From a virus, in the IMG/VR virus record IMGVR_UViG_3300006329_000001, positions 32,001 through 96,000 of that record: a DNA stretch of 64,000 nt, one strand, 5' to 3'. The notes beneath the pieces were generated by a model, which was given only the letters and a program-made list of their open reading frames with translations, ran no database searches and was not told the DNA's origin. Of the stretch, positions 26,835-64,000 are shown piece after piece (positions within the stretch are counted from its first letter, which is position 1; every line of letters begins with the position of its first letter). The position numbers and the translations under genes are program-made.

Positions 26835-27087
26835 CAGTTTTCTCCTTAACAAGTTGCAATAGTAGACTTTTAATGTCGGTTACATCAGATTTTAATGCAT
26901 TTACCTGATTTTGTAAAGAGGTAAATTCAGTTTTCTTACGTTGCCTTTCATTATAAGACTGCATGTATTTAGAATATTCATCGCCATCGGTCATTACGAT
27001 AGCGTTGGATTCTGTATCTCTATAGAATCCTTTGTTTTCATCCCCTTCTACAGGGATAAATCTCTTTCCAGTAAAATTATAGTCCAT
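26824..27087 (-). CDS. Small coiled-coil virion-associated hypothetical
   Basis: FYRDTESNAIV...LKSDVTDIKSLLLQL; coupled to the VrlC-like gene by TAATG. Confidence 0.7.
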   Translation of the reverse strand: MDYNFTGKRFIPVEGDENKGFYRDTESNAIVMTDGDEYSKYMQSYNERQRKKTEFTSLQNQVNALKSDVTDIKSLLLQLVKEKTDAS

Positions 27088-30000: not shown

Positions 30001-33000
30001 AATCTTGATCCAGATTGTGCACCAATTACAGTCTCACCAATAACAAATGGTGTCTCATTAGTTCTAGCATCTTCAGATGAGTTCTTAACGATCTCAATCA
30101 ACTTAGGTGTAATGTAAGTCATTATATTATCACCATCAAAGAATGCGTACATTCTGGTCTTAGGTTTGATACGTTGTACATCAAATCCAACGTTCCTAGA
30201 CCTGATCCATGGTATAAATGTACTATCAATAACACTGTCTCCTAGAGATCTTCTATCAATCCTAGGTACAACACGAGTTCTAATACCACTTCTTACCTGA
30301 CGACGTGTAGTGGTAATAGTCTGAGTCGCCATGATTCTTCTAGGCACACCACGAGAGAATGAATGTTCTCTCCATCTTCTTGTGTTAGTTCTTCTAGTAC
30401 CTGTCCAAGTAGTTCTCCATGCTCTCCATTGTATAGGAGCAAAACCTTGTTGGTTTACACGCAATCTTCTACGAGTTGCTTGGAAGTTACCTTCTATATT
30501 TGTAATTCTTGCAGGAGCACGACGTGTGTCAGTCCAGTCATCAGATGCAGGTGTAAGATCAATACGACCAATGAATGTGAAGACGTTAAATGGGTTAACG
30601 TTCTCCATTCTAGAAGCATATGGTTGTATGATTAACGCATCAGATGTGTATGGAAGAGTGATTAAGTTAGCAACTGCTTTCTGTACATTAGTAGAAGAAG
30701 TTGAGTTCCACTGTAATGCTACGTTAGTAGTATAATGCTGTGGACGTAGATTACCTTCTGTGAAGTCTAATGAACACTTATAGTCTAAGTTCTCTGTAGC
30801 AGAAGTTCCATGAGATGTAAAGTCATCAACCATGAATCCATTCTTAAGACGATCAAATCCATCATCATCATATGCTTTAACATTTCTAGCATCACTCTCA
30901 AGAAGAGATAGAGAAGTATAGTACTCAACGTCTTGTAAACGTCTGTCCATGTTACCTATGTCTTCCATAGTGTAACGACGTTGTTGGTGTAGAGTAATAA
31001 TTACATCTTCATCTACATCATAAACATATGGTTGGTAGCTAATCTTGGCAAGTAACATTGCATTGTCAAGATCATCTGCTTCAGGAGGATCTTCTGAAGG
31101 TATACCTTCAGATAATTTTAGATCACCATCATGTGTCATGAATAGTTTATCACGACGTGGTAGATAGTATTCGTAGTCAGCACGGAATTCTTCTTCTACC
31201 TTAGGTACGTTAAAGATAGTAGAACCACCTGCACCACCAGTGCTTGTGAATACTCTTGAGTCAAAGTCTAAACTTACACAGTTTGTGTAGTATGGTTGCT
31301 CAACTGTACCAGATCCAGATGCTAGTTCTCCAACAGCAGGTCTGAAGTCTACAGTATCAGTTAAGTACTTACTATTGTTATTACCTCTCCATCTAGGAAT
31401 TTCAGAGAAGTCAATACCAGAGTAAGATTGGTTAGCAAAGTAGTCACCTGACGCTTCATGAATGAAGTAGTCAAATACAACTGCTAATTTTCTACGAGGT
31501 TCAGCAGTTCCACCTTTTCTAAGAAGTTTGGAAACACTATAGTAGTAGGAATTTAAGCTAGCGTCTAAGTCGAAGTTCGCTGTGATGTTTTTTGATCCTC
31601 TTTCGAGTGATCCATCAGCATCATCAACGACACCAACCAAAGCATTAAGATCGTCATCAAAGCCATCGATGGTCTCTCCTGAATTAAAGAATTCTGAACT
31701 TGTAGGTACAAGATATAATCTAAGATTGTTAGAGTTAAATGATACAACTCTTGCACGAGCACCACTTGTTCTACCAACAACAATAGATCCTGGATCGAAG
31801 AATACATTCTCCGTTAGAATCACATAAGGTACTTGAGCATCACCATCATCTTCTGATTCATATACAGCATGTAGTTTGTATACATCATTCAGTGCGAATG
31901 AAATCTCTTCATCCTCAATACGAGTACCATATAAGTTACCGTATGTTAAACCGTAGTTCTGTACATCAGTATTGTTTCTAGTACGAACAACTTTCATCAC
32001 TCGCATCTTAGCAGCAGTCTTAATCTTCTTAGATACTGTATTGACAGAAACTGCAGCAGTTAGAGTTACCTCAGTAATATTAGAAGCACCACCACTACCT
32101 TGGTTCATACCAGTGACCTGTAGTGACTGTCTATTAGCACCAAAGGTTACACCGATAGTAGGTGAGTTCTTAGTAGATTCATTCTCAATATCAATGTTAG
32201 TACCTACATTCCAACCATATCCTGTATGACTGTTAGCACCTTGTGTAACTGTAAGAATATAGTTCTCACTATCAAGAGTAGTAAACTGTTCGTTCTCTGG
32301 TAGTGTGAATGTAACGTCACCAGATGATAACTGTTTGTTAGCGAAGGTTTTTATTACAACAAATGATTCATCAGAGATTGACTTAATGGCATGTTTAGGC
32401 ATGTCAATAACCAATTCTCCATCCTGTACAGTCTTCGTTGCAAATCTAGGACGTAATCTAACAACCTGTGCTGAAGGATATTCAGCATCAGGAACAGTAC
32501 CTTTAGTTAAACCTGTGTCTAATGCAGCATGTTGGTTAGTGAAATCAAATACAACAGCAGTACCAGGATCATTCCTGTTTGCAGTAGTAAATCCAATAGC
32601 AGTTTGATCTATTCTCTTAACTCGAATAGAGTTCTGTGCTTTAAAATCTGTATTAGTTGCAGTTATAACTTCACCTGCACGAATATCACTTTCGAATCTT
32701 GTACCGAAACCTTCTATTCTATCGTTACCACCTGTTGCATCAATATTAATAGTTGTACCTGGAATAGCCTCTCTAAGGTTAAGTGCTAATGAAGCAGTAA
32801 AGATAACAGTAGCACCATCTTTACCTACAACTTGACGAACATCAGATTGCTCATAAGCATATACAGCATCCAATGTATCTAATACTCTACCATCTCTAGT
32901 GATAACTTCACCGATTTGGAAATCTCCTGAAACTTGATGTACTAAACAAGAAGCACCTGAACCACTGTAAACAAATGCAGTAGCACCTGACTGACGACCT

Positions 33001-34454
33001 TTTAATACTTCACCAGAGTTAACTGTCTGACTGTTTGCAAAGTTCAGAGCAGTAAACATCTGTATATCAAACATAAACAGATTGTATCTACTAGAATCTC
33101 TTTCTAATTGTAGAGTTCTTGCTTTACCAATTAGTGCACCCTGAACACTGTTAGATGCTCCTGTACCAGACCAATTGTCTCTTAGTTCTAATACCTGATA
33201 ACAGTTAGTTACACCCTCTCCAGAGATCTCTGGCCAACCCCAGATGTCATATACCTCACATGACTGTGATAAGTCAATAGGAATAATCTGGTTGTTACGT
33301 CCAACAAAGGTACGAGGTTTTGGTGCGTCAACATAGTTAGCAGCAAGTAGTTCTGTTCTAAAACCTTTTACATATGCTTTACCCTTACCAACCTCTAATG
33401 CCATGTAGTTGCTAGAAGCAACGTTACCATCTGCAGAATTTTGTCCTGCATTGTAAACACCATTATTAAAGAAATCATTTAGATGTTCTCTAGGACGTAC
33501 ATCAAATGAATCAACAACATAATCTCCATGCGTTTCATAAGTACGACGAGCAATAGATTTCTCAATCTCGTTATACTCAGTACGATCAACGAAGTTTTCT
33601 ACAATAGAATTCTTAAGACGTAAGAGTTCTATAAAGTTCTTATCAGTATCATCAGTTATTGGTTTCTTAACCAATGTACATTTGATTCTGAATCTATGAG
33701 AACCTGGTGCAGAATAGTTCGATGAACCAATCGCATTGTCTGTTAGGGCTGGGTCGTCTTCTGGAGTGATGATCGACTCTGATACTTCGAATCCGACTCT
33801 GTAGGAAGGATTATTGGTATACTGATCCAGGATAATGTAAGCAGAAGAAATGTCAACGAAATGCCCACGGATGAAATAAACTCCTTCATTGATATACGCT
33901 GTAGAACCTATTTGTGCTGCATCAACTGGTAATAGTTGAGCGAATGGTGATCCAACTTCGATTAAAGTATTACCGAATGTTAGTTCATTTTCACATATTA
34001 ACTGTTCGTTGTTCTGGAATACCTTTGTGTTTACATCAGATGTAGTATCACCAGACTCAACATACTTAAGATAGAAACTTATATAACCACGAGTTGATTC
34101 AGTAGCAGGGATAGAGAATAGGATCTTAGCTTTAATGCCAGTAGTAAGACCTTCTACAATCTTTCCATGTAACTGTTCCCTATAAGTCTCAACGTCAACT
34201 CCCAAAAACGCTTGCTGAATAAGGATGTTATGTACAGATAGGTCATATCCAATTTGTCCAGGAATGACCATAGCACCTTCTTTAAAGAGGTGCGTTCCCA
34301 TGTTCTCGATCTGATTCTGCAGAATCGATTGCATAGTGGTAAGTTCTCTTGCCTGGATTGGGAATCCTGGTCTAAAGAGTACTCTATAAAAATTATTGTC
34401 TTTGCTGAAATCGTCGAAATACGGAGCGATATTCAGATTGGTATTCTGTGGCAT
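27087..34454 (-). CDS. Large virion structural protein, VrlC-like / DUF4815-type
   Basis: NLNIAPYFDDF...VLFRPGFPIQARELTTMQSILQNQ N-terminus; DPLAQSF and SQNASTWTADQYEDLKF motifs. Confidence 0.8.
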   Translation of the reverse strand: MPQNTNLNIAPYFDDFSKDNNFYRVLFRPGFPIQARELTTMQSILQNQIENMGTHLFKEGAMVIPGQIGYDLSVHNILIQQAFLGVDVETYREQLHGKIVEGLTTGIKAKILFSIPATESTRGYISFYLKYVESGDTTSDVNTKVFQNNEQLICENELTFGNTLIEVGSPFAQLLPVDAAQIGSTAYINEGVYFIRGHFVDISSAYIILDQYTNNPSYRVGFEVSESIITPEDDPALTDNAIGSSNYSAPGSHRFRIKCTLVKKPITDDTDKNFIELLRLKNSIVENFVDRTEYNEIEKSIARRTYETHGDYVVDSFDVRPREHLNDFFNNGVYNAGQNSADGNVASSNYMALEVGKGKAYVKGFRTELLAANYVDAPKPRTFVGRNNQIIPIDLSQSCEVYDIWGWPEISGEGVTNCYQVLELRDNWSGTGASNSVQGALIGKARTLQLERDSSRYNLFMFDIQMFTALNFANSQTVNSGEVLKGRQSGATAFVYSGSGASCLVHQVSGDFQIGEVITRDGRVLDTLDAVYAYEQSDVRQVVGKDGATVIFTASLALNLREAIPGTTINIDATGGNDRIEGFGTRFESDIRAGEVITATNTDFKAQNSIRVKRIDQTAIGFTTANRNDPGTAVVFDFTNQHAALDTGLTKGTVPDAEYPSAQVVRLRPRFATKTVQDGELVIDMPKHAIKSISDESFVVIKTFANKQLSSGDVTFTLPENEQFTTLDSENYILTVTQGANSHTGYGWNVGTNIDIENESTKNSPTIGVTFGANRQSLQVTGMNQGSGGASNITEVTLTAAVSVNTVSKKIKTAAKMRVMKVVRTRNNTDVQNYGLTYGNLYGTRIEDEEISFALNDVYKLHAVYESEDDGDAQVPYVILTENVFFDPGSIVVGRTSGARARVVSFNSNNLRLYLVPTSSEFFNSGETIDGFDDDLNALVGVVDDADGSLERGSKNITANFDLDASLNSYYYSVSKLLRKGGTAEPRRKLAVVFDYFIHEASGDYFANQSYSGIDFSEIPRWRGNNNSKYLTDTVDFRPAVGELASGSGTVEQPYYTNCVSLDFDSRVFTSTGGAGGSTIFNVPKVEEEFRADYEYYLPRRDKLFMTHDGDLKLSEGIPSEDPPEADDLDNAMLLAKISYQPYVYDVDEDVIITLHQQRRYTMEDIGNMDRRLQDVEYYTSLSLLESDARNVKAYDDDGFDRLKNGFMVDDFTSHGTSATENLDYKCSLDFTEGNLRPQHYTTNVALQWNSTSSTNVQKAVANLITLPYTSDALIIQPYASRMENVNPFNVFTFIGRIDLTPASDDWTDTRRAPARITNIEGNFQATRRRLRVNQQGFAPIQWRAWRTTWTGTRRTNTRRWREHSFSRGVPRRIMATQTITTTRRQVRSGIRTRVVPRIDRRSLGDSVIDSTFIPWIRSRNVGFDVQRIKPKTRMYAFFDGDNIMTYITPKLIEIVKNSSEDARTNETPFVIGETVIGAQSGSRFRVAAPNDGLATDPYSQTNANLPDSYASQTAILNIDTVVMAQTISPDYYGNARIGEILVGQTSGARAVVKDRRLISDLIGNMKGVFFIPNPQNSSNPRWATGSRVFRLSSSETDSRLPGAVDSAAEAEYTARGTLNTVQENILAVRNASVVRDTVTDRRTVRSTRTNTRQVGWWDPLAQSFLLEQQGGTFVTAVDIFFGTKDTNIPISMQIRPMENGYPTKDILPFSDVTIEPSGVEVSENASIATRFTFPAPVYIPASEEHCFVLFSDSNEYKVWISRMGDIDVTGTRTISEQPYAGVLFKSQNASTWTADQYEDLKFTLYRATFDTGVTGRAVFNNTKLGLANDGILSLVNNPVTTIKPQQQITLPTGNNYNFTVGARVKQTPSNAEGTVVEFDSVANPEILTVTDIVGTFAQGFIDGNGDPFQALKSSQSSVTIVMSTVNNGTFSAGDVITGSSSGATAVVTDYNAGTTTITANYVDSQFDVSNDTLSEPGGVSGTMSSASYSGDSYTAYPALTPTARAVDKKLHVFHPNHGMHNRSNNVTITGVRSEIPSTVLNTTLSSTATSIAVQEAGTFHKIINGQSISNTNQGYLKIYAAEFPSAVGSIPGEDEATEAWAGWDPVHEIVAYSAINSTGTTITVATSGRAAAGTVAREWPAGSIVECYNLDGIPLTEINKTHTAIDDPTLDSYTLPTTSTASVGIRTGGPGVTATQNVPFELITPTIQVMNFKETDIVASINTTSGTSIGTSGTIVDQASFVNNGTYDIIQINEENYFNNPRIICSQINEDNKLEGNKSFTMRIDMSTEKDNLTPVVDLDRVSAITTSNRINRWPGGQQVLGLQADIDTTADVSLLPSGDQNEAVYITKTARLSNLSRSIRIMIAMMRFGDSNIKLYYRIQKPGSDKVMDEIGWVSIPLPEIGATNVGEEEWEDFEYTVTGEEFQAFQIKIVMTGTNQAKVPLVKDMRAIAFAS

Positions 34455-34458
34455 TGAT

Positions 34459-35994
34459 TTAGAATTCTACTACGATCTTGATATCTTCGATTTGGTCACC
34501 TGCACGAGAAATCGCACCTCTATTATCTATGTAAATAATCTCACCAGAGTTTGGCTCGATCTCAGGTTTAGCATATCCGTTGGTGAACGACATACCTAAA
34601 TCATATTCTGTGTTGTTAATAATACGAGTGGATGAACCAGAAACAATTGGGAAGTTGATGTCTGGGTCAGCAGAGGTACCTGATGTAGCACCTACCACAG
34701 GGTTACCACCCTCAAAGTCAGTTAGGTTACCAGTAATTTCTGGGAACACACCGTCAATTCTATTTTGATAGAATTTCAGGACTTTAGTGGTATCATTCCA
34801 TGAAATAACCCGACCTCTAGCAGTCACCTGTTGACCACCGACAGTTCGGGATTGTGTTATTATCTCATCAGTTTGGAACTGACCTGTAAAGGTTGGTGAG
34901 AATATAACCGCTTGAGTAGCAGATAATGTAATAGCAGATGTTAGAGCTGTAGTTCCGTACTGCTTGGGATTAATAACCAAACCAATACGACGATAGTCGT
35001 TATCAGTTGGGAAGTCACCTGATCCCTCAGCGTATGTAAATTTGGTGTTGATCATTACACGATATCCACCTAACTCAGAGTCTGGTTCAGCACCATGTCC
35101 TGTCTCAGGAGGAATGATAACGTCAATAGCAGCACCAGTACCAGTTCCTGCACCAATACCATTGACTTCATCAATAACGATCTTACCGAAGTTGTATCCA
35201 GATCCACCAGATGTCACAGTAGCGTTAACTATACGTCCACCATCAACAACCAGTGATACTCTTCCACCAACTCCATCACCTTTAATAGGAACGTTTTCAT
35301 ACGTTCCGTTGTTGTATCCAGTACCTGATGCTTGGATAACAACAGTATCAATCTCTCCACCAACAGCATCACCTGTAACAGCAACGTCTGCAAGTACAGG
35401 CATATAATCGTTAGAGAAGAATTTTAAGACTTGACCAACAGGTATAGTATAAAGATACTTCCAACGATAGCCGTCACTGGTAGTGATAATACTTGTGGAA
35501 GTACCAGTAGGCTCAACCGTGGATGGTTTGCCATTTGGGTCTGAAGGAGACGTGCCATTGTAGATACATTTATAAGTTTGATATTGTGAGTTAACTACAT
35601 AAAAATCAGCATCATACAACTTAGTTGCACCAGAAGACGCAGTTTTAGTAGAACTATAATCATGACGGTACATGTCATAGACATAACCTAATCCACCAGT
35701 AGTTTGTTCTGGTGGTGTCCAGTCAATTCGCCTTACAACCTGGATTGTATCGTTAGCAAGAACCCTCTTAAGAGAGATCATGTCAGCGAATGTGTCTGAA
35801 AACTCTTGGAAAGAATCGACAGGGGTAGGAGGAGCATTCTCATTGTCCCACTCTTGTGGTCTTCCAATGAAAACATACAACCTGTCCCTCGACGTTCCCG
35901 CCTCAAGGTCTGACTGCGATGGGTCGGCACCCTCTAGAGCTTTAATAAATCTCTCCGCAGTGAAAATTCTAAATTGATCGGTGAGTAGTGCCAT
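34459..35994 (-). CDS. gp8: Baseplate wedge protein gp8
   Basis: YDMYRHDY, FYVVNSQYQTYKCI, DGYRWKYLY and IIYIDNR...QIEDIKIVVEF motifs. Promoter ATAAATA at 36017-36023. Confidence 0.9.
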   Translation of the reverse strand: MALLTDQFRIFTAERFIKALEGADPSQSDLEAGTSRDRLYVFIGRPQEWDNENAPPTPVDSFQEFSDTFADMISLKRVLANDTIQVVRRIDWTPPEQTTGGLGYVYDMYRHDYSSTKTASSGATKLYDADFYVVNSQYQTYKCIYNGTSPSDPNGKPSTVEPTGTSTSIITTSDGYRWKYLYTIPVGQVLKFFSNDYMPVLADVAVTGDAVGGEIDTVVIQASGTGYNNGTYENVPIKGDGVGGRVSLVVDGGRIVNATVTSGGSGYNFGKIVIDEVNGIGAGTGTGAAIDVIIPPETGHGAEPDSELGGYRVMINTKFTYAEGSGDFPTDNDYRRIGLVINPKQYGTTALTSAITLSATQAVIFSPTFTGQFQTDEIITQSRTVGGQQVTARGRVISWNDTTKVLKFYQNRIDGVFPEITGNLTDFEGGNPVVGATSGTSADPDINFPIVSGSSTRIINNTEYDLGMSFTNGYAKPEIEPNSGEIIYIDNRGAISRAGDQIEDIKIVVEF

Positions 35995-37880: not shown

Positions 37881-39383
37881 TTATACCACCACGATGTCTC
37901 CGATCATACCACCATGCTCAGTGCACTGATACTTGTAATTTGTACCAGCTGCAAGTGTCATAGGCACGGTGTATGTTGTTGTTCCTGTTGCTGAACCACT
38001 GACTCCTAAAGTAACTGCAGAACCACCATCTGAAACTCTGATCTCAAATGGATGTGTACTACCAGTTGTATTGTGGAACTTATAAGTAAATCCTCTATAC
38101 ACATAGAATGCAGGATCATCAGCAGTATCAGCTACACCTGGTCCTGTAAATCTATATGCAGAAGTACCATTTGATGATACTGAATACCATAATGTAGGAG
38201 AAGCACCACTTACAACAGCAAAATTCTCATCGAAATGGAATGAATGACCTTTATTAGAAACATCTCCAACTGGGAGATTCTCGTCCACATTAACAGTCAG
38301 TGTATTGCCAGCCATAGCAGTTGTACAACCAGTACCACCAGCTATAGTTAATGTAGTAGTAGCTGCTGCAGCTGCAGTAGATCCTGAATCCCCCGCAACT
38401 GTTTGGAATAAGTTCTGAACGATATTTGGAGCATCGTTAGTGATAGTAATAGCACCTGCGTTGAGGTTAGTGCTAATACCAGTACCACCTAAGAAGTTAA
38501 GACTATCAGTAGTTACAGTAGCTGAAGTTTGTCCATTATCTGCACCGAATGTCTCAAAGAGATTCTGATCAGGATCTCCAAGAGCTCCTGTCATATTGAT
38601 TGTTAAAGTGTCTCCAACCAATGCAGTACCAATGTTTGTACCACCAACAATATTAAAAGTGTCGTTAGGAGCAGATGCAGTGGTTGTACCAGTATCACCA
38701 GTAAATGTCTCGAATAAGTTTTGTGTCGTTCCACCGCTACCACCTGTCCCTTCCTCATCATTAGCAGGTGACCACTTCTGGGTTGATGCAACCCACTTAA
38801 GAACTTGTCCGTCTGAAGGACCACCACTCACAGTGGTATCAACATCACTTAATAATGAAATACTACTGTTTTCTGAGATAAGAGGTACCCAAGCAGCAGC
38901 ATGAGCGAAATATCCTTTACCTGTATCATGTGCATGAGCAAACATACCATGATGATCTGTGGCATTTGGTAATCCTGCTTCAGTGGCGTATGGTGCATAC
39001 CATTTAAAGTATCCATCATCACCATCAACATATGTGTATGCAGATCCAGATCCACCTGCCCAAAGTTTAATATCTCCTGTCCCAGTTTGCTTGATTACTA
39101 TGTCATCAGTACCGTCACAAACGATCTGATTAGCATTTGTATCAAGATTAGAACTTAAAATATTATAGTCACCTGCTCTAAAAGCACCACTGGGACTAGA
39201 AGTCCACTTTAAAACCTGTCCATCAGTCGGTGCTCCACTGATGTCCACTTGGATTGTAGTATCGTTACCTAATGCTGTGTAAAGCTCATCAAAGTTGGCA
39301 TTTACCTTGATGGCACCATCACGCAAAGTATCACCAGTGCCATCATTTGCAGAAGATCCAATACCAACTGATTGTTTAGCCAT
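37881..39383 (-). CDS. gp9/gp10-family baseplate-fibre connector with a C-terminal cupredoxin-like domain
   Basis: N-terminal NDGTGDTLRDGAIKVNANFDELY, three QNLF repeats, and C-terminal HPF...YQCTEHGGMIG. Promoter ATAAATA at 39406-39412. Confidence 0.75.
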   Translation of the reverse strand: MAKQSVGIGSSANDGTGDTLRDGAIKVNANFDELYTALGNDTTIQVDISGAPTDGQVLKWTSSPSGAFRAGDYNILSSNLDTNANQIVCDGTDDIVIKQTGTGDIKLWAGGSGSAYTYVDGDDGYFKWYAPYATEAGLPNATDHHGMFAHAHDTGKGYFAHAAAWVPLISENSSISLLSDVDTTVSGGPSDGQVLKWVASTQKWSPANDEEGTGGSGGTTQNLFETFTGDTGTTTASAPNDTFNIVGGTNIGTALVGDTLTINMTGALGDPDQNLFETFGADNGQTSATVTTDSLNFLGGTGISTNLNAGAITITNDAPNIVQNLFQTVAGDSGSTAAAAATTTLTIAGGTGCTTAMAGNTLTVNVDENLPVGDVSNKGHSFHFDENFAVVSGASPTLWYSVSSNGTSAYRFTGPGVADTADDPAFYVYRGFTYKFHNTTGSTHPFEIRVSDGGSAVTLGVSGSATGTTTYTVPMTLAAGTNYKYQCTEHGGMIGDIVVV

Positions 39384-44000: not shown

Positions 44001-47000
44001 TTTGTAGTATCTTTGTAGATATCATATCCAGACCACTGAGAAGTATTATTCTGATCATACAATGTACGTTTTACATACTCACGAATTCTAGTTGTGTAGA
44101 ATAGTAAGTGCTGTCTAACAACAGTTGGGAATGCGATAAAGTTACCTTCACCATCAAACCAAGTGTTAACCAACTTAAGCATACCTTGGTTACCACCTGT
44201 ATTCATGTCATACAATAATGCATGAATCATATCATCAGCAAATTGCTTGTCTGCACCAGTACCAGGATATTGGTTAACAGTTCTATCGTATGCCTTGTTA
44301 ACAATTGCGTGCTTATTAAAGAGAAGATGTCTTGCACACTTCTTATCAGACTTAGATCCACCACCAAGTGTATTGAGTAATACATCGAATAATGTATCAG
44401 TTGCAGACGTTACATTATAACAAGTAAATGTCTGATAGTTTTGGTTAAATCTGAATGGTGGAATCTTCTCGATAGCATCCAAGTGACTTCCACCACCACC
44501 TTTAGCAAGATAGATTGTGTCAATGATGATTTGCATCAAAGATTCTATATTTGCTGCAGCAGTTGGACATGTTGTATTCCAATCTCCTGCATCAGCACCA
44601 TCAGTATGGAATGTGATTGATACATCACGTTCTGCCATTTCAGGAGCGTACTTAACTGGCCAAATCATTGGTAGAGATTTAGTAATCGTACCATCAGTTA
44701 GAGCTGCAGGTGTGTTAATTGCAGTAGTATAGATTGCCATCGAAGTTGTGATAGCAGATGCAACATCAGCACACTTAGGATTATTAGTGTCAGCAGTAAT
44801 TACATAGTTACTTGCACTATATGGTTTAAAGTCAAGATCATTGTAGAATGATTGCTTATACTTGTGTCCACTTCTAGGATATGTCTTCTGTGCAGTATTA
44901 CCATCTCTTGAGCATGTGAATGTCAAGGAGTTAGGTGCTAACTTAACAGATGTTCCAGTGAATAGATCATGTGAACCAATTGTTAATGCTAAGTATCCAG
45001 TTGCAGGATCGTAAGTAGCATTAGTTGGTGTGTAAGTGACGATTGGTGATTGACCAACATCAACAGTAATTGTGTTACCTGACTTAGCAACGATAGGCAT
45101 TGGTCTATCGAAAGCAGGATCCTTAGCACGAGGATATGTATGATTAGTTGTGTAATCATCTTGTGCACAAGTGAATGTTAATGAATCAGTTCTGATCTTA
45201 ACGTTTGCACCTGCTCTAACAACACCACCAGAAGTTGCAGATACAAATGAATGAGTTGTAGTGTTAGTAGAAGGAATATTTTCTAGAACTTGTACATCAA
45301 ATGTATTTGTTCCTACGTTAGAAATAGTCAACCAGTTTCCACTTGCAGGGTCACTTGATCTTGGATAAGAATGATTACCTGAACCTTGTGTACATGTGAA
45401 GGTTAATGAATTATCAGCAATGTTAACTTTGTCTCCATTGTTCCATCCATGACCATTAATAGTTAAGGTCATTACACCTGTATTTGGATCATATGCAGCA
45501 CCAGTAACTGTCTTCGCTGCACTTGGTCCTTCTAGTGTGTTTGATCCAATATCTAATACTAAGTGTCCAGTACCTGCATCATATGTTGCGTTAGAAACAT
45601 TAAAGTCTACAAACGGTGTTGAGGTTACGTTAACAGTTATTGAGGTTGATGTGTATGCAGTTATGGATAATGTTTGACCAGATGCATAATCAGTAGATCT
45701 TGGATATCCATGAACTGTGGAGTTACCATCAAAATCACAAGTGAAGTTTAATCCATTATCATCAATCGTGATTGTGTTGGAATTAGTTAAGTTGTGAGCA
45801 GAAGCAAAGGTAAGAATTAATTCACCAGTAGTACCATCATATGTTGCTCCATTAGGTGTCAACTCAGTAGGTGCACCACCAACATTGACACAGTTAGTTG
45901 CAGCACTTACAAATGTATGATCGTATGCACCACCAGTCATTACTGCACCAGGTAGAGCACTTACAAATTGATGCTGATAATTACCACCAGTGATTAGAGC
46001 ACCAGTTTGAGCACTTACAAATGCGTGAGTGTACTGATCGTTAGGACCAGAAGCACCAACTTGTAATGTAACTACACCTGAAGGATTCTGTCTTGTAATA
46101 CCATTGGTTGTAGCTGATACAAACTGATGAGTGTAATCACCACCAGTGTGGATAGCACCTGCAGTTGCAGATTTAAAGGTATGCTGATAATTACCACCAC
46201 TAATTACAGCACCAGAAACTGCATACTGGAAGTAATGAGTTGTGAGGTTGGAGATAGCACCAGATCCATCATTTACATCTAATGTAATTGTTCCATCTTG
46301 CTTATGAAGACCATTAGCAGCGAATGATTGGAATTGATGTGTGTACTGATCATTAGGACCAGAGATACCAACTTGTATACTGAAGTTATTGTTATCAACG
46401 AATGTTACTGGTAACCACTCATCATATACTGGGTCAGTTGTTCTTGGATATGAGTGATCGCTAGAATTACCATCTTTATTACATCTAAATGTAACTGCAT
46501 TAGGAGCAATCTTAACCATGTCACCTGCATAAGTTACTCCATTAGGAGAAGCAGTTACAAAATTATGAGTTGTAGTATCAGAAGATATACCAACATTAAC
46601 TTCGAATGTATCGTTAGTTACGTTAGTAACTTGTAGCCACTTATCGAATGGATAATCAGATCCACCAGGAGCAGCAGAACCATACTGTCTAGGATATGAT
46701 TTAACAGCACTGTTACCATCTAATCCACATGTGAATGAAATTGAGTTAGCAGCAATCTTAATTCTATCGTTATTCGCAAAACCATGATTAGTGATAGTAA
46801 CAACCATCTTACCATCAGCAGGTGTGTAGGTTGCACTTTCGATAGTATGTGTTGTATGACCCGCTAAACCATGGTTGTTCATGGTTAGTGTCATTACACC
46901 AGTAGATGAGTTGTATGCAGCACTTGTTGGTGTATGTGTTGTATGTCCAACAGCATCAATATTAATTGCTGTATTCCATGCAGGGTCAGGACCATTAGGT

Positions 47001-50000
47001 GCTGAAGCACGAGGATAAACGTGATTTGTTGCTTGACTATCTTCGTCACACTTAAAGACTAAAGAACTTGTTGCTATCTTAATGCTCTCTCCAGTTCTAA
47101 ATTCATGAGCACCAATTGATAGAACGATGTTACCAGTATTAGGTGTAAAGACTGCATTGTGTACATCATAATTCTTAATAACAGATGCACCAACATTAAC
47201 TGTGATTGTAGTCTCAGTAGTACCGATAATCTGAACTGGTTCACCACTAACAGGATCAGTTGTTCTTGGGTAAGTTTTAGTTGAGTTATTTCCATCCATC
47301 ACACAAGTAAAGGATAGAGAATTATCAGCAATCTTAATATTAGTTCCTTGACTTAATGTATGGTTACCGATAGTTAAGATTAAGTTACCAGTATTAGGTT
47401 CGTAAACTACGTTAGTAGGAGTAAACTTCTTAATCTTAGAAGTACCAACATTAACTGTAAATGTATCATTAGTCTTAGAAATAATAGGTAACCATTGTCC
47501 ACTTACAGGATCAGTTGATCTTGGATATGTGTGGTTACTGTAGAAATTATCCATTGAGCAAGTTAATGTCAATGAATTATCAGCAACGTTAATCTTGTCT
47601 CCTACACCAAATCCATGTCCTGAAACTGTTAGAGTTAATAGACCTGTACCTGCATCATAAGCAGCATTAGTTGCAGTATGAGTTGTAGATGCAACATCAA
47701 CAATATCAATAGCAGTATCGAATGAAGGATCAGCACCATAGTTAAGTGCTAGAGATTCATTTCTCATTACCTGAATCGCTAGATCTCTTGCATAGTTACA
47801 TATCCAGATTGCTTCAGTAGCATGAGTTAGACCTTCATTAACATAGTATTCAGCAGCACGAACAATCTTGTTGTTACCACCATGACGTAGGTTCCAAACC
47901 ATAGCGTCAAGGAAGTCACTTAAGTCATGTACACAGTTGATATTTCCACCAGGAATATTAAGTGAAGGATATTGTACTTTAGCAGCAGCAATAGTTTCTT
48001 CAGCAATAACACGGATATTTCTTTCGATTACATCAGCAGCGTTAATGAATCTATCTTTAACAGCATTACGTTCGTAAGTAGAAACGTCAACGTTGTCAAA
48101 GGACTCACTACCGCCACCAGTTATACCATCGTCATCTCCTGTATCTGCATCTGGGTTATAGATGTAAAGGTTCTCACGACCAAATCCATTACGGATAGTC
48201 ATAATTGCAATTTCAGTTGCAATCTTAAGAACACTAATACCTGCTTCATCTTCACCAGGAGCAACTCCAACATTACATGTAATTTGACCAGTCTGTCTCT
48301 TAAGTCCATCTGTGGTAAATGATACAAATGAATGAGCAGAAGTATTAGTAGAAGGAACAGTTGTTAATACCTGAACACTGAAAGTATTAGCATCAACATA
48401 AGTTACAGGTAACCATGCTTTGTATGCAGGATCTTGAGGTCTTGGATATTGCTTAGTCTGTGAATTACACTGTAATGAAAGAGCATTTTCAGTTATCATT
48501 ACATAATCATTTGCCTTCGTAATACCATTAGAAGTTGCAGACTTAAATGTATGTGCAGTTACGTTAGTAGAAGGAATCTCTGCTAGAACCTGAACATCAA
48601 AAGTATTATTAGTTACGTTAAGAATAGGTAACCATGAATTTGAGGCAGGGTCAGTAGAACGAGGATATGTATGATCAGATACGTTGTTGTCTAACATACA
48701 TGTAAATGTTAATGAGTTATCAGCAATCTTTACACTATCACCAACACTAAATCCATGGTTAGTGCAGGTCAATGTCATGATACCTGTCTCTGGATTATAA
48801 GTAGCAGTTTCTACAGTATCCTGTGACTGACCAGTAAACGGATGACCATTTAATGTAAATGCTACAACACCTGTATTAGGATCATAAGTAGCACCTGTTG
48901 GTGTATGAGATGTTTGTGATACCTCAGTAATTTCTACAGATGTATTATAAACAGGATCTGTATCACGAGGATATGAATGCTCAGTTATATAATCATCTCT
49001 ATCACATGTAAATGTTAATGCTTCTTTCTTAAATCTGAAACTCTGTCCAGTAACTAATTGGTGTGCACCAATAGTCATTTGTAATGCACCTGATACAGGG
49101 TTGTAATCAGCAGCAGATACGTTGTAGTAAACTAAAGGAGTTGTACCAACATTAACTGTAATTGTTGATAATGTATATGCAGTAATAGCAAGAGACTTAC
49201 CATATGCAGGATCACCTTTACGAGGATAAGTATGATTGTCCTCATTCTGGTTCATTTCACAAGTGAAGGTTAAACCATCTTCTGCAATCTCAATAGTATT
49301 AGAAGAAGTTAATCCGTGACTTGGAATTGTTAAAATTAAGTTACCAGTAGAAGGTTGATAAACTACGTTTTGTGGAGTATGTTGTCCACCACCATTATCA
49401 GTAACAGCATTAGTTGCAGCAGTTACAAATGTATGTCCATAGTTACCACCTGCTTCGATAGCATTTAGAGATGCTCTAACGAATTGGTGTGTATGCTGAC
49501 GACCATTTAACTGAATAAGATTATCAGTCTCAGGATCAAGATATAATGCAGCAGCTTCATATGTCTTACTGTTACCACCCTTTCTAAGGTCATGTGCAAC
49601 AGCCTTTAATATATCAAGAACATCATCTACACAATTCTGAGCACCATCAGGAACAGTGAAGTTAAGGAACTTAGAAAGATCGTTCATTGTATGAACTGCT
49701 TCCCAAGCAATTACATTAGCGTTCTTCTCAATCAAGTGAGCAGCATCTAATACTCTGTTATTAGAATCATAAGCATCAGGATTATAACCCTCTGGGTCAA
49801 TAGTGATTGTTGGATCTCTATAAACTGCAAGGTCTGTGTACTGCATTGGATAGTAGTCATCCTGATATACAGTTGGAATATCTTCTCCAAGACCTGCAGC
49901 AGTTTGACCTTGAGGTAAGAGAGTGTTGTTGATACACTTCTTACATAACATTCTTACATATTCATATACATCCAATACAGCACTTAGTTCATTGTCAACC

Positions 50001-53000
50001 GAATAAAGTTCGTTATTAGCGTTGAGGAACTTACTGGTGTTGTACTGGATAGCATTAGTTCCACCTGTAACCAAGTCAGCAATAATAGCAGGAAGAATAT
50101 AAGTCTTGATTTCGAAAGTGCACTTATTAGGATTAGCGTTAGGGTTTTGATAGAAGTCATAAGTTGTACTATTAATATTTGCTTGGTAGGTTGCTTCTAA
50201 CCAACCAACTGCTTCAGCAGCGATTGCATCACGGTTCTGCCAAATTAGATCACCTGCATCTCTGAATCTCTGACCTGTAGGTCCAAGAACATCTCCAATA
50301 TCATCACATAATTTAACAATAGCATCCTGAATCTCTTGTGAAGCAGGAGATGAGAAGTTGTTAGGTATACGAAGTATATCAGTATACTGAGTACCACCAT
50401 AAGTCTTAAGATCTGAACTTGTAGTTGTAATTACATAATTACAAATTGGTGCTAATTCTCTATAGGTGTAAATTGACTGAAGAATCTCATTAGCGATATG
50501 CTCTAATCCTTCGTATGCAGTTAAGTAGTTTCTAGCAGCAAGTGTACTGTTATAGTTACCACCATAACGTAAATCTTGGATAACACCTTTAAGAATAAAC
50601 TCTTTAGTATCTCTTAAACAGAAACTTGTACCCTGTTGAGGACCAACTCCATCAGCAGTATCACCAGGCATCACCAAATCAGGGAATTTTGCCTTCATCT
50701 TCCAGACTGCAGTTTCAGCAATCCATGCTCTGTTAAGTTCTAAAATATCTGCTGCTTGACGGAAAGCATCTCTTGATATATCAACTTCCTCAACAATAAC
50801 TTCACGAGTATCATAATCAACTTTAGTTGCTTGAGAAGCAGAATTAGTAGTACCAGTTAGAGTTGCATATGCTTCATTATTACTCATAATGATAGGCAAC
50901 TCATTACTCATTGAGAAGGTAATACCAGTTGTAGATGTTGGGAATAGAGTAGAAGGTGTAAAGGATGAAGTATACTTAGACTCTCCACCATAGAATACAA
51001 CGTTATCAATATATCCAACATAGTTGTTACCACCGTTCCACTCAGCACCAATAGTCATCTTACGTTCACGGTAAGTATTAGTGTCTGTGTAATCAGTACC
51101 AACTTGTGAACCATTAACCCAAAGTTTGAGTATTTGACTGGTTCTAGTCATGGCAATGTGATACCATGTATTAGCACTCATACCATGAGCACCACTAATC
51201 ACATCAGAACCATTAATCTTATACTTCAGGTTACCTGAATCAAAGTAAAGACTTGGAGAATTAACTTCTGAAGCACCACTTGTACGCATATCAAGTAGGT
51301 ACTTAGTAGTGTTCATTGCAGTTGTAGGACGTACCCACATCTCAATGGTAAAGTCTGATGTGCCAAATGCAGGTATAGTGGATAATGCATATGAGAGGTA
51401 TGCTCCTGAATCAAGTTTCAGGGACTTCGTTCCACTACGTTTTTCTATAGCTGTTAGTCTTGCTGAAGCAGGATATATGGTAGTAGCATTAGTAACTGCA
51501 CTCTGGAATGTATGTGCATAACTACCACCAACTTCTACAGCATCTGCGATTGCTCTTACAAATGTATGTGGAGTAGTATTAGAAGAAGGAGCAGAACTTA
51601 ATACGTTAATAGTAATAGTTCCATCTTGTCTAGTAATGTTGTTAGAACCAGAAGTTACATATGTGTGAACATATTGCTCATCTGCAGGAGATTCACCAAC
51701 CTGAACACCAATATTATTATCATCGATTACAGTAACATCTAACCACTGATTATCGACTGGATCAGTGCTTCTTGGATATGTGTGATTACTACCATTACCA
51801 TCTTTAGTGCAACTGAATGTTAATGAATCGGTAGCAATCTTGATTCTGTTACCAGTCTGCATTCCATGGTTAACAATACTAAGTTTAAGAGTACCGTTAG
51901 AAGGTTCATAAACTGCATCAGATGAAGTAAATGTTGCTTGTACACCAATAGAGGTTACATTAATCTTAGTATTGTATACAGGGTCTTGTCCACCTGAAGG
52001 GTTACCTGAACCTGCAACTCTAGGATAAGAGTGCTCTGTAGCATCACTATCTTGAGTACAAGTAAAGATCAATGAATTTGGTTTTAATCTAATACTGTCA
52101 CCAACATTAAGATTATGGTTACCAACATTAAGAACAGTAGAACCTGTGATTGGATCATAATCTGCACCAGTTACTTGTAAGTATGTCTTAGGAGTAGCAC
52201 CAACATTAACTGTAAATGTATTAGTTGTAGTTTTTAAAATCTGAAGTTGTTGTCCTTGTCCAACTGGATCATCAGCACGAGGATAGTCATGGTTGGATGC
52301 ATTACCATCCATTGCACAACTAAATCTCAATGCATTAACAGCAAACGATACTTTATTACCTACAGAATAACCATGGTTATTAAGAGTAAGAGTTAACTGT
52401 CCAGTATCAGGATCATATGTTGCTCCTGTAGGAGTTATATTAACGTTAGATCCACCAGGATTATTAGTAATCTTAGTATTGGTGACATACTCTTTAAGTT
52501 TAAAGATACCAGTAACAGTTTGAGCATACAACCATCTTAAACCAGAGTTTGCACCCTTAAGTGGGAATGATGCACCAGTAGTTGCTCCTATAATTGTGTC
52601 ACCAGGAACGAAGAATCCAGTACCACCTCTATCCTTATAAGCAAACTTGTAAACACGAATGTTCTCATTCTCTTGATAAGTACCATCTGAGATAACTGAG
52701 AGTGCATTGATATTATCAAGGTTACCACCTGCCTTAACGGAATTAGCAATAGCAGATACAAATGTATGTGTGTAGTTACCACCAGAAATTACAGCACCTG
52801 CAGTTGCAGATACAAATGTATGAGCATCAGTATTAGAGATAGCACCCTGTCCACCGTTCACATTAACTGTGATTGTGGTTCCTGTTTTAGAAATGATAGG
52901 AAGTGCAGTGTCATACGCATAGTCAGCACCACTAGATGTGTTAGCACCATTAGCACGAGGATATAATCCTTCACCACCACCGTTGTAAGCACACTGGAAT

Positions 53001-56000
53001 CTTAATGATTCAGTGGCAAGTTTAATACTTGTACCAACTTCTAAAGTGTGTGCACCAATAGTTAATTGCAAATCACCAGAAGTTATATTGTAATTTGCAG
53101 CAGTAACATCATGGTTAACGAGAGGAGTTGTACCAACGTTAATTGTAATTGTTGTATTTCCACCACCAACAGCAGTAATAGGGATCTGCTTTTCATACCA
53201 TGGGTCAGTAGGACGTGGGTATGTCTTTTGAGCAGTATTACCATCCATACCACAAGTAAATGTTAATCCATAAGGATCAATTCTTACAGTGTCAGATGTT
53301 GTTAAAGTATGTGATCCAATGGTAAGAACCATGTCACCAGTTGTGGCATTATAAGTTGCACCTGAAGGAGTGAACTGATCACCACTAAATGCAGTAGTAG
53401 CAAGATTTGCTAAAGTATCAATAGAAGATGCTACGTTTGCACAGTTTGTTTCATTCTGGTTAGATCCTGAAGCATAATCTGGATCATAGTAATGTGCAAC
53501 ACTAGAACTCTCTAGATATGGAGCAGAGTATGTTGTAGGATCATTAAGGTTATAACCAGTTTCACTAAGAGACTGACTGTAGAGCAAGTTTCTCATTGCT
53601 CTCTTACATAATTCTTTTGCTTTATTAAATGCAGTTATCGCTTCTTCTGTTTCTGGAAGACCATTGTTAATTGGAATTCCATTTGAGTCAAAGAACTTCT
53701 TAGTAAAGGTTACAATTGCATAATTACCATCACTTTCTAGGTCATCTGCAATAGCATCAATAAAGTATCCTGTATCTCTATTACACTTGATCTCTTTAGG
53801 AGTATAACCTGCATCAGGTGTAGTAAGATCAATAAGATCACTTAGTGACGCTGCTTCGAGGACTTCCTTAACATTGGTCCAAAGAGTTGTAAGAGCAGCC
53901 TGAACGTCAGCACAATTGTCAGCACCGTTGTTAGTAGTATTGGTACCTGCTGATCCATAATTACCGCCAGGATTAGGGTCAGCAGTAATACCAGTATTGT
54001 TATTAGGTCCACTAGATTGCTCATTGTATTTTGTATAAACGACAGCATCAATAGTTTCAGATCCACTTAAAGTGTTCTGAATAGCATCCTGCATATAATC
54101 TACACATCTCTGGAATCCCCAAACAGTTTCAGTTTCTTCACCAAGAAGATATGCTAATGATGTGCCATCAGGGAAGTACTTTTGTAAGAACTTACGAGTA
54201 TAAACTGTACCACCCCATCCTGTATCTCTTGAGAGAGCATCGATGAGATATCTCATATCTCTCTTACATTTAGTAGCACTAGGAATTGTAGAACTAGGAT
54301 ACTGAACAATCATGTCCTGATATGCCTTAGCAATAATCCATTCGCTATTTTTTTGTATTAAACGATATCCATCTTTAAATCTACCATACTGAGTAGTTTC
54401 TGTTTCTCCAGTGTAGTAGAAATCTGGATAGTCGATTGCAATCTGAGAGGTTGCAAAATCGATAATTTCTTGTCTATTATTTCTAATGCTTCTAGCAGCA
54501 TCTTTATATCTGTTAATAGCGTCAGTTTCAGCATTACCGTAACTAACATTGATAGAACGAATCTTATCATTATTAGTGATTGTACCACCAGATAAGTTGT
54601 TATATTCGATCTCAGTAGAACGTACTGACTCATAATCAAGGAAGTCAGCGTTAATACGATCTGCAGCGTCAGTTAATGTAGTAGGAGTAATAGTTGTCTC
54701 AGAGATATTATCAAGAATAATATTCTGGTTAGATAGAGATATAAGTCTCTCAAATACTAATCCGAAGAATGTAGAACCTTTGTTAATGATAAGAGTATCT
54801 ACAACGTCACCTAACTTGATATCACCTGAAACAGTAGCATTTAACGATCCAGCAGTAATTGTTTCACCATCAACAAAATTAGCAACAGATTTAGCTACAA
54901 AGTACAATACAGGTGGTTGTGCTTCAGCATCTACTCTAACAACTTCAGCAAGAGCACCTGAAATTCCACCAGTTAGTTGATCTCCTTCTTCGAAGGCTAC
55001 TGCAGTTGCAAGGTTGATAGAACTGATAGGATCTCTATATGGAGAAATTCCAACTACTTTAGCAGCAATATTTGATGCTGAAGAGTATATAAAGTCATTT
55101 AAGAAAATAGCATAAGCACCAGTCTCATATTCGGCAGTACCAGAAGTCTTAGAAAGAACTAAGAAGGAATCAGTATTACCATCAAGGTCTAAGTTAGTTT
55201 CTTCGACTTTAGCGGTTTCTCCACTTAAAGCAACCTTAGTAACGATTTCTTCGAACTCAAAGATAGTTTCTTGACTTAAAACATCAATGGAACCAATTAA
55301 AGCACTAAATCCAGTTCTAGAAACGTCAATTCTTTCATTGAGTTGATAAGGACCAGATGTGATGTCAATAACATCAATACTTGCTGCACCAGTAGCAACA
55401 ACTCTAGAATTGGCATTAGAAGTGAATCCAGAAACAAAATCACCGATTTGTGGGAAAATACCACCAATAGTGTTTAGATTAAGTCTAGTAATCTGTAATA
55501 TCTGTATTTCTACGTTTCTGTAAACAACCTTAGAATCTGGTCTTGGTGGTTCAGCAAATACGATCTGATTACCAACAATTTGATATGCAGTACCAGGTGA
55601 CTGGATAACACCGTTTAAGGTGACCAACATCTGATTTTCTTTAATTATTACCTGTTCACCTTCTACACTAAGTGGGAATCCTTTAGTAGAACCATCAAAC
55701 TGATCTGAGATGTTATCTAACTTCTTAACGATAGATGTTAAGATTTCCTCAGAGTTTGTTAGTCTTTTCTTTCTGAATAGAACTTCAGAGTTGTTAAATG
55801 TAGAATATATTGGTTGAGCAGCACCAAATGATGTAATTTGGTTAACATTGGTATATTCGTTAATATTAACCTGTTTTGTAAACTCAGTACCAATCTTACG
55901 TCCAGAAACGTCCTTACCACCAGTCAGTTCTAACTGACCGAACATATTAAATCCTGCAGGGTGATTATTCTCTAATACCTGCTTCTTCCAACGGTTAATT

Positions 56001-62000: not shown

Positions 62001-64000
62001 ACAACTGAGTTAAAACTAGGACCAATGATGTATGGGAAGACTGGTAAACCTGCATCTGACTCATCAATGGTTATAAAGTATGCATATGTACCTGCAGGAT
62101 AGTCTGGAGTCTTACAGAAACGTCCATTATAAGCATCTAGGTCACCTTGTTGGAATGTGTACTTATAATCGTTTACAAAGTATCCTGCAGGGTATGTGTC
62201 TAGTGAAGGACCATCAATACGAGCAGGATTTGGGTTTGTATCCTCATCTTCTACAATTTCTGTCTTTAAAGTGTAAGAAGAACGCATTCTTCTAATACCA
62301 CTGTTCTGATCAGTAGGATCAATGTATCCATAAGGACCATAGATGGGATTACCATCAAATGCCCATCCAATGATAGGAGAGTGACTAATGTTAGAAGGAA
62401 CTTCTTGGAAACGGTTAGTTTCTGGATTTAAGAAGACGTTATCACCAATTACATAACGTAATTCCTTAGGATCGGAAACGTGAGCATATTCACCACCATA
62501 TTGGTTATTAAAACCAGTAAAGACGTATCCTCTTGCTATATCATACTTTCTCTTAAGAGATCCATCAGTATTTTGTGCTGTAGGGTTAGCAGGATCAGGA
62601 TCTAACTGATATTCTATATTTTTGTTCCACTGGAAGACATCTGCAGTAAATGTTGCTAATTGACCAACTGCTTCTAATCTAACAGTTGTCATTCCTTGTG
62701 TATATCCAACACCCTTGTTAGTAATCGATACTGAGATAACTTTACCCTTATCTTCTCCTAAAGTACCAATAACAGCAGTTGCTTGAGCACCAAATCCATC
62801 ACCATTGACATAAACCTTAGGTGCTGATGTATAAGCATCACCAGAGTTAATAATAGCGATAGATACGATTCTACCGTTAATAACGATAGGTTGTGCTAGT
62901 GCTCCTTCACCAGAATTAAGTTTTATAGTTGGTGTAGAAGTATATCCGACACCTGGGTTAGATAATGTAACTGCACTGATTGCACCTCTTACAGAAGCAG
63001 TTGCAAGTGCTCCAGAACCTTTTCCACCAGTAATTGATATAGTTGGTTGTGAGGTATATCCAGTTCCTGGGTTTTCTACAAGAATTCTTGTTACTCTACC
63101 ATTAGTAACAACCGCTTGAGCAGTTGCACCGCTACCACCACCTCCAACGATAGAAATTAGTGGTTGTTCTGTATATCCACTACCTTCTGCAGTAACTTCG
63201 ACTGAATCTAGTGATCCATTAACAGTTACAGTCGCTGCAGCACCTGTACCGCCACCACCAGTGATTTCTAAGGTAGGTCTTGATCCTGCATCATAATCTA
63301 CACCTTCATTAGTGATATTAACAGTAGTTAAAGGACCAAAGGTAACAAATTCACTAGATTTGTAAGACCAAGCAGAAACACCGTTAACCCAAGCACCAAT
63401 TGGATAGTTTGCACCAACTTCTGTTCTTGTAGAGATAGTTTCGACAATTCTAGGGAAACGAAGTAGTTTTCTTTGGTTTCCTGGAATCATTGCAGACCCT
63501 TGGAAAGGACCTACCTTATAGTTGGGCAATCCAGACGCTGCAACGTAAACGTAGTTAGTATTAAAGAATGCGTTCTGTATATTAGAGGTAAATAACGAAA
63601 TTACTTCATCAATAGTGGTTTCAGTTGACTTTCCTCTATTAAGGTCAACAGAAAGAAGTATATTACCCTGTGGAACAATGTCCATTGGGGTAGGAATGCT
63701 GTATGAGAAGGTAAAGTCGTCTAAACGAGAAGTAACCTCAAAAGTACCATTATAAACAGCAGGGTTTGCACCATAAATGGTAACTTGATCTTCTACAAGC
63801 AAACCATGTGGGTTAGAGCAGACAACAGTAGCAGTTTGGTTGTTAAGACCACCAGGATTGATGGAAGTAACGCTAATTAGCTTCTTAACGTTGTATAGCC
63901 ATGATTGGAGTCTCTCATCTTCACCAGATGAACCTAGAGCAGCAACATTTAACTTATCTCCAGGCAAATAGTAAGATCCACTGTCTTCTAATTCAGTAGT
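41012..64000 (-). CDS. gp7: Giant gp7-like baseplate wedge initiator / multidomain structural protein, 5'-truncated (>7,660 aa)
   Basis: The frame stays open to 64000 ([15 protein letters not shown]...). Conserved [17 protein letters not shown]...HPAGF near 55950-56065, GxGY repeats, and position upstream of gp8. Confidence 0.75.
44050..54520 (-). repeat. About 7 helical repeats with phycobiliprotein-like motifs
   Basis: Pattern RFxDAxxLIxxNxxxIAxEA...[YF]P...CxRD...DLxxGG[NT] (see findings). Confidence 0.7.
44870..53380 (-). repeat. 18 copies of an ~100-aa beta domain (ATYDPxTG...LTFTC...YPRxxDP...HTFVSA) in four blocks
   Basis: I counted 18 YPR motifs and 18 HxF-type closing strands in the translation. 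Confidence 0.85.

Follow-up and report, generated by a model that had tools for sequence, protein, structure and literature searches.

Phycobiliprotein-like modules in a giant gp7-position protein of a T4-like cyanomyovirus: candidate bilin sites in a phage virion

Introduction

Phycobiliproteins (PF00502), the core-membrane linker ApcE and the BBAGs of heterotrophic bacteria are the closest described systems to a repeated viral domain that is analyzed here. ApcE attaches its bilin without the help of a lyase. BBAGs (bilin biosynthesis-associated globins) are phycobiliprotein paralogues outside photosynthesis, some of which carry CXRD; the CXRD residues are bilin ligands, and the CXRD-bearing BBAGs tested bind bilins, some of them in the absence of lyases (Rockwell et al. 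2023, PMC10151467). The domain in question lies in a giant open reading frame (ORF) on a 64,000-nucleotide stretch, hereafter the window, which comprises bases 32001-96000 of IMG/VR record IMGVR_UViG_3300006329_000001. This source record is a T4-like cyanomyovirus of 162.7 kb (87% complete) with ~91% DNA identity to Prochlorococcus phage P-RSM6. An original prediction, made from the letters of the window, proposed about seven phycobiliprotein-like helical repeats at 44050-54520 inside a baseplate protein that might display bilins on the virion.

Results

Repeats in the giant protein

As read from sequence and structure models, phycobiliprotein-like modules that keep the bilin-site motif are embedded in a giant protein predicted to be the gp7-position baseplate-wedge virion protein. 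Its frame spans 8576 amino acids (aa) in the full record, and the region 44050-54520 falls inside it. Repeats were detected with a hidden Markov model (HMM) grown from one repeat and with two family HMMs from unrelated metagenomic proteins. Seven full copies (R1-R7, E 1e-30 to 2.9e-9) and one N-terminal partial copy (R0, E 1e-6) were found, in agreement with the predicted number. The features are as follows, with residues numbered in the ORF of the window and iE denoting the independent E-value of a match.

41012-64000, minus strand: giant protein, predicted virion/baseplate component at the gp7 position, from the ORF list; its 5' end lies outside the window
54404-54514, minus strand: R0 (residues 3163-3199), partial, first two helices only; family HMMs iE 1e-6 to 7e-6 at profile positions 3-40; PF00502 stretch 33-68
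54050-54385, minus strand: R1 (3206-3317), intact K-C-K-R-D, Cys codon 54266-54268; family HMM iE 1e-30; PF00502 23.8 bits (cut-off 22.2)
53561-53902, minus strand: R2 (3367-3480), intact K-C-N-R-D, Cys codon 53783-53785; family HMMs iE 6e-20 and 4e-23; own-genome search
50399-50773, minus strand: R3 (4410-4534), intact F-C-L-R-D, Cys codon 50618-50620; PF00502 E 1.8e-7; family HMM iE 1.8e-24
49904-50272, minus strand: R4 (4577-4699), degenerate K-C-T-F-E, Cys codon 50120-50122; family HMMs and orthologue alignment
49496-49762, minus strand: R5 (4747-4837), first part with helices A-F, N-C-V-D-D, Cys codon 49631-49633; family HMMs and orthologue alignment
48158-48241, minus strand: last helix of R5; orthologues without the insertion read straight through
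47747-48058, minus strand: R6 (5315-5420), N-C-V-H-D, Cys codon 47933-47935, with a P-G-G-N loop ahead as in phycobiliproteins; family HMM iE 8e-25; PF00502 E 0.038
44039-44347, minus strand: R7 (6552-6654), divergent and Cys-less, K-Q-F-A-D; family HMM iE 2.9e-9 at profile positions 5-112

The peptides quoted in the original prediction and all six Cys codons were checked and lie where they had been placed, and the Cys-less copy it saw near 44240 is real and corresponds to R7. The C-x-R-D site is intact in R1-R3 and partly lost in R4 (CTFE), R5 (CVDD) and R6 (CVHD), while the Cys itself is gone in R7. Judging by these motifs, R1-R3 are the only plausible bilin sites in the window, and R4-R7, having lost parts of the site, are probably structural spacers or decayed copies. 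Across 17 orthologues (45-93% identity) R3, R4 and R5 never lose their Cys, nor R3 its Arg and Asp, and the R4 site reads C-[LEVQ]-R-D in more distant orthologues outside the sublineage of the window. R5 is regarded as a split repeat because orthologues that lack an insertion of "YPR" blocks run on uninterrupted; in the window ~410 aa of these blocks precede its last helix, and for R5 the inserted blocks had thus been predicted rightly.

Homology and fold

Homology and a shared fold with the phycobiliprotein/bilin-binding-globin superfamily, as put forward in the original prediction, can be considered settled from profile searches and models. PF00502 was the sole consistent Pfam match, with 31.7 bits for R3 in a half-protein search (gathering cut-off 22.2) and 23.8 bits for the R0/R1 segment, these two spanning only profile positions ~25-95 of 155, and with E-values of 5e-5 to 0.2 for single repeats. 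When a profile of the seven repeats was compared with all PDB sequences, 133 matched at E<=10, and the best 60 of these 133 were without exception phycobiliproteins or fluorescent proteins derived from them (top E 1e-7). In this search the repeat Cys aligned to K-C-A-R-D of CpcA, placing it at the alpha84/beta82 position as predicted, with C-x-R-D matching Cys84, Arg86 and Asp87 of the bilin site, and the register agrees for K-C-x-R-D-x-G-Y and for the end of helix E at G-G/D. A second profile, made from 150 canonical units of other viruses, retrieved 57 PDB sequences, 55 of them phycobiliproteins (best E 1.2e-4). Taken singly, 20 of the 150 units matched PF00502, and no other family recurred.

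The canonical unit of ~108 aa was modeled with AlphaFold2 at high confidence (pLDDT 92.3) as a globin-like fold of five helices, A, B, E, F and G, equivalent to phycobiliprotein residues 33-142. The top 50 Foldseek matches of this model were all phycobiliproteins (TM-score 0.78-0.80, root-mean-square deviation (rmsd) 2.7 A). A Foldseek-independent all-versus-representatives search put a far-red allophycocyanin at the top (Z 11.8, with an rmsd of 2.2 A over 101 residues), then the bilin domains of ApcE (Z 11.0) and photocobilin (Z 10.8) and then phycoerythrin; colicin pore domains (Z 9-10) and sensor globins (Z ~8) came lower. The R3-R5 module of the window gave a model of low confidence (pLDDT 64), for which phycobiliproteins were still the best match (TM-score to target 0.54-0.70).

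A viral domain family

At E<=1e-3 the seven-repeat profile matched 1279 representative proteins. The best 150 of these 1279 are 730-7903 aa long, mostly above 1500 aa, and hold up to 34 copies each in tandem beads-on-a-string arrays with a spacing of 100-180 aa, the shortest tandem units measuring 108 aa. Across the 1501 copies in these 150 proteins, the Cys, Arg and Asp of the site are conserved at 97%, 93% and 99%, respectively, alongside D58 (98%), Y74 (98%) and N16 (93%); E23, K43, D53 and N64 are further conserved polar positions. The copies have one conserved Cys per unit, and neither a second conserved Cys nor a conserved His for haem ligation was found among them. This bears on two further parts of the original prediction, namely a helix opening on a second Cys as a feature of the repeats and its likeness to the additional bilin site at beta-155. 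The strings behind the former are present (53891-53917, 53420-53446 and 44750-44776), the first being the opening helix of R2, yet as a repeat feature the second Cys is not borne out, and a beta-155-like bilin Cys has no family-wide conservation.

Genomes were scanned with a degenerate DNA motif for K-C-x-R-D-x-G-[YF]-I-x-D-A. In IMG/VR it occurred in at least 120 stretches, and all those listed carry the domain. Bacterial and archaeal genomes totalling 596 Gb gave 10 stretches, all on contigs of metagenome-assembled genomes, with ~1.6 expected by chance. The family is considered viral because about ten cellular stretches in 596 Gb stand against at least 120 in IMG/VR.

Position and further domains of the giant protein

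The P-RSM6 orthologue CPXG_00128 (8573 aa) follows gp25-like and gp6-like genes and precedes a gp8-type wedge gene, so that the giant gene sits between gp6 and gp8 homologues, the position of gp7. The P-HM2 homologue is annotated as gp7. In PHROGs, the giant protein matched families of virion structural protein, baseplate wedge subunit and tail fiber protein, with baseplate-wedge similarity to phrog_2885 (E 1.4e-222) and phrog_708 (E 6e-68) besides the virion structural protein family phrog_701. Its predicted status as a virion component is taken only from the "virion structural protein" annotations of relatives such as Syn19, S-RIM8 and P-RSM1. Downstream in the window lie a gp9-like connector gene (37881-39383) and a gp8-like gene (34459-35994). 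Beyond these baseplate genes are two giant ORFs on the minus strand (19228-26550 and 27087-34454; 2440 and 2455 aa), in which the family profile detected no phycobiliprotein-like domain.

The giant protein contains other modules on the same strand. Eighteen YPR blocks of ~85 aa each (L-T-F-T-C-x-x-D-G-...-H-x-Y-P-R) occupy 44400-49480 and 51500-53420 and alternate with "H-T-F-V-S-A...G-G-N-Y" motifs. Every block has its own conserved Cys, and the blocks match the tail fibre families phrog_1276 and phrog_5342 and no Pfam family. A Laminin_G_3/concanavalin-like lectin domain (PF13385, E 6.8e-18) at 50987-51385, just upstream of R3, is plausibly a module through which the baseplate protein binds carbohydrates. 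The N-terminal half holds a YHYH domain (PF14240, E 1.6e-28) at 62063-62503.

Distribution among phages

The module of the window and a canonical module were used as tblastn queries against 50,697 cultured-phage records. They matched 343 and 127 records, respectively, and all of these are Synechococcus or Prochlorococcus phages apart from one marine single-cell virus. Among the 1457 gp23-positive cultured records, ~990 infect bacteria other than cyanobacteria, and tblastn did not find the domain in these ~990 T4-like phages. The restriction to cyanophages raised in the original prediction thus holds among cultured phages and breaks down in IMG/VR, where a lineage of ~360 kb jumbo phages has the domain too.

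Three giant ORFs of the jumbo phage genome G001 (363,943 bp, 100% complete) carry the domain, and a search there for psbA and hli found neither. The G001 capsid protein shares 70-73% identity with its counterparts in jumbo phages of Vibrio, Sinorhizobium, Pseudomonas and Erwinia. An overlapping pair of genes encodes a haem oxygenase (HO) and a bilin reductase (FDBR), and the nearest domain gene is ~80 kb away. Homologues of the curli secretion proteins CsgG and CsgF, ClpS, HSP20 and HSP70 adjoin this pair (G001:280000-296000, positions 3586-11264). Among 40 IMG/VR records picked only by a related FDBR, the domain was present in all six of those of at least 100 kb, and psbA was present in none tested. 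In cultured relatives of the jumbo lineage neither the FDBR nor the domain was found. The idea that these are pmoC phages was dropped, as no pmoC was found in the lineage in a search whose control likewise gave nothing. Each domain-bearing phage seen either has a bilin-rich host or makes its own bilins, while the converse fails.

Bilin genes and CpeT

The original prediction suggested a search for bilin genes in the rest of the genome, and the source genome does contain two FDBRs, ~45 kb from the giant gene, and a CpeT-like gene. Its proposal that the domain gives phage bilin genes a virion substrate does not stand as their only purpose, because P-SSM2, S-SSM7 and Pelagibacter phage Mosig have FDBR/HO genes and no domain (see also PMC3037559, Table 3). 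The same three phages rule out a rule that bilin genes imply the domain. In Mosig, three 2OG-Fe(II) oxygenases lie beside hemO-pcyX.

For CpeT, an orphan phage lyase, the sample was the set of 16 cyanomyoviruses in Sullivan et al. 2010. CpeT and the domain are both present in 13 and both missing from three (P-SSM2, S-SM2 and S-SSM7). These three form one clade with genome G002 in a gp23 tree, in which the rows of Syn9 and Syn19, probably mis-extracted, show aberrant branch lengths. Reading the table as 16 independent points (Fisher p 0.0018) was therefore rejected. A universal rule by which the domain is confined to genomes with CpeT breaks down in G001, G031 and G002, and no S/U-type lyase was found in any phage tested.

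Gene order provides independent support for the CpeT link. In Syn1 and S-PM2, cpeT is located 0.7-1.5 kb upstream of, and on the same strand as, a domain-bearing giant gene of 3.8-4.0 thousand aa, which is followed by gp12; in a third genome (G003) CpeT is 3 kb from a domain-bearing gene. The full-length cpeT of Syn1 is Syn1_028 (NC_015288.1 19938-20477; PF06206 E 1.5e-35); Table 3 of Sullivan et al. 2010 marks Syn1 cpeT as "-" (PMC3037559). A 2OG-Fe(II) oxygenase gene (T4-GC 104) stands between cpeT and the giant fibre gene, directly upstream of the latter, in both Syn1 and S-PM2. In the S-PM2 record AJ630128.1 (165928-177267), 16 tRNA features are annotated inside the coding sequence for the giant protein S-PM2p218, their coordinates probably being displaced.

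Light-dependent adsorption

P-HM1 and P-HM2 fail to adsorb in the dark, while P-SSM2 and P-SSP7 adsorb in the dark (PMC6628666). Adsorption of S-PM2 is light-dependent and photosynthesis-independent, possibly acting via tail fibres (Jia et al. 2010, cited in PMC6628666). The domain is present in P-HM1 (five copies), P-HM2 (five copies) and S-PM2 (12 copies) and has no copies in P-SSM2 and P-SSP7. A fit with the light-dependent adsorption mentioned in the original prediction is therefore seen, as the light-requiring phages have the domain and the dark-adsorbing phages do not, and the match is suggestive within a small sample.

Discussion

Bilin binding and its alternatives

From the sequence motif and by analogy with CXRD globins, we lean towards covalent bilin binding by those domain units of the virion protein that have an intact C-x-R-D. 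This is preferred because the ligand residues are the most constrained, the CXRD globins of this clade that have been tested bind bilins, the distribution tracks bilin supply and cpeT is linked to the fibre gene. Such units (R1-R3 here, most units in relatives) would take up bilin by a thioether linkage in the infected cell, with the bilin supplied either by the host or by reductases that the phage itself encodes. The link may form autocatalytically, as it does in ApcE and BBAGs, or with the aid of phage CpeT, and a few dozen chromophores would sit on the baseplate or fibres of the released virion. More speculatively, light absorbed by these might alter the conformation of fibre or baseplate and thereby gate adsorption. 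The fullest form of this idea is that many cyanomyoviruses and the bilin-making jumbo lineage of ~360 kb carry virions whose covalent bilins serve as a photoreceptor gating adsorption, with CpeT and the hemO-pcyA/X cassettes chromophorylating the phages' own structural proteins. We offer this only tentatively and think it rather doubtful.

Several observations weigh against bilin binding and what is built on it. Four of the seven window copies lack the Arg and/or Asp, or the Cys, and the canonical unit is without the N-terminal X-Y hairpin and C-terminal helix H, aligning to allophycocyanin 33-142 only. Mosig, P-SSM2 and S-SSM7 have bilin genes and lack the domain, and in three domain-bearing genomes (G001, G031 and G002) neither CpeT nor CpeS is present. 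As the three double-negatives form one clade, the 13-to-3 association of CpeT and domain amounts to a single evolutionary event. The adsorption correlation comprises five phages, effectively two versus two. To our knowledge, no pigmented cyanophage particles have been reported and no chromophore has been observed. Pigment would be easily overlooked, however, since six gp7 copies with 3-7 sites each at 1e12 virions/ml would, by arithmetic, give an absorbance of only ~0.003-0.007.

The main rival is an apo-globin building block, a bead that lengthens or stiffens fibres or acts as an adhesin, in which Cys, Arg and Asp together with D58, Y74 and N16 hold the fold or the packing between domains and no chromophore is present. 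Tandem arrays of up to 34 copies at 100-180 aa spacing are what it would lead one to expect, and it accommodates the retention of the degenerate copies R4-R7 in the window and its orthologues, the loose coupling between bilin genes and domain, the lack of reports of pigmented virions and the collapse of the CpeT association into one clade. It gives no reason why conservation should peak at exactly the three bilin-ligand residues, why ~990 cultured T4-like phages that infect bacteria other than cyanobacteria should lack the domain, why the one further lineage should encode its own HO-FDBR or why cpeT should lie beside a fibre gene, and a lone, invariant and unpaired Cys is odd for a structural extracellular domain. 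We regard this rival as possible, though on balance unlikely.

It is less likely still that the Cys-Arg-Asp site binds or reacts with a partner other than a bilin, such as another tetrapyrrole, a metal, a host surface ligand or, by cross-linking after lysis, a neighboring chain. One invariant Cys amid conserved polar residues (N16, E23, K43, D53, D58, N64 and Y74) would suit such chemistry, haem is a ligand of globin-fold relatives, and in photocobilins a bilin is paired with B12. Yet CXRD is specifically a bilin site within the phycobiliprotein/BBAG clade (PMC10151467), a conserved His for haem is missing, and the distribution tracks bilin availability. Chance resemblance or convergence between unrelated helical repeats, finally, would explain why identity to phycobiliproteins is just 12-20%, why Foldseek gives weak E-values (0.08-0.15, a common outcome with small helical domains) and why colicin pore domains also reach Z 9-10. 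It is highly improbable given that profile E-values of 1e-7 and 1e-4 go to phycobiliproteins, that the Pfam gathering score is exceeded, that K-C-x-R-D-x-G-Y and the G-G/D end of helix E agree in register and that bilin-binding proteins head the Foldseek-independent fold search.

The role of cyanophage cpeT "remains unresolved" (PMC3037559), and hemO and FDBR genes in phages thought to infect non-phototrophs are "still enigmatic" (PMC11480375). A virion protein with an intact bilin-attachment motif would be a testable candidate for both the role of cpeT and the presence of phage hemO/FDBR. Full-text literature searches found no published description of a phycobiliprotein-like virion domain. 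Should bilins prove to be bound, no earlier pigment-bearing bacteriophage particle is known to us, and the phycobiliprotein fold would have found a new use; the compact 108-aa unit might interest designers of fluorescent proteins. If none is bound, a host-type light-harvesting fold would have been recruited as a building block of phage fibres.

Comparison with known systems

With the phycobiliproteins (CpcA/B, ApcA/B, CpeA/B; PF00502) the phage domain shares the globin helices A, B, E, F and G, the in-register K-C-x-R-D-x-G-Y on helix E, a conserved Asn on helix B and, in some copies, the P-G-G-N loop before the Cys. Unlike free subunits of 17-20 kDa that assemble into (alpha-beta)3 discs, the phage domains are units of 108-170 aa within virion proteins of 2-8.5 thousand aa, here internal to one of 8576 aa. 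They show no sign of alpha-beta pairing or disc assembly, the canonical unit is devoid of helix H and of the X-Y hairpin through which alpha and beta subunits pair, and the domains are encoded by viruses only, at 12-20% identity.

The photocobilin bilin-binding domain (8j2y and 8j2w, Z 10.8 and 9.0) is likewise a helical globin-like bilin domain fused to other modules; it belongs to a cellular photoreceptor, is paired with a B12 domain and has no detectable sequence match to the phage domain. ApcE resembles the giant protein in that its phycobiliprotein-type domain is one part of a large protein with several domains and accommodates a large inserted loop, and it is matched structurally at Z 11.0 (4xxi and three phycobilisome entries). 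It differs in having one domain in the phycobilisome core, whereas the phage baseplate or fibre proteins have 7-34 copies, with a nested, beta-rich YPR insertion of ~410 aa in R5 of the giant protein.

BBAGs are small cellular proteins encoded in pre-PcyA gene clusters, whereas the phage domains are modules of virion proteins; with FDBRs ~45 kb away in the source genome and HO-FDBR ~80 kb away in G001, co-occurrence with bilin genes is at the genome level only. Like the BBAGs, the phage domain appears from its sequence and modeled fold to be a phycobiliprotein-clade globin with CXRD, and in the jumbo lineage it is linked at that level to HO/FDBR.

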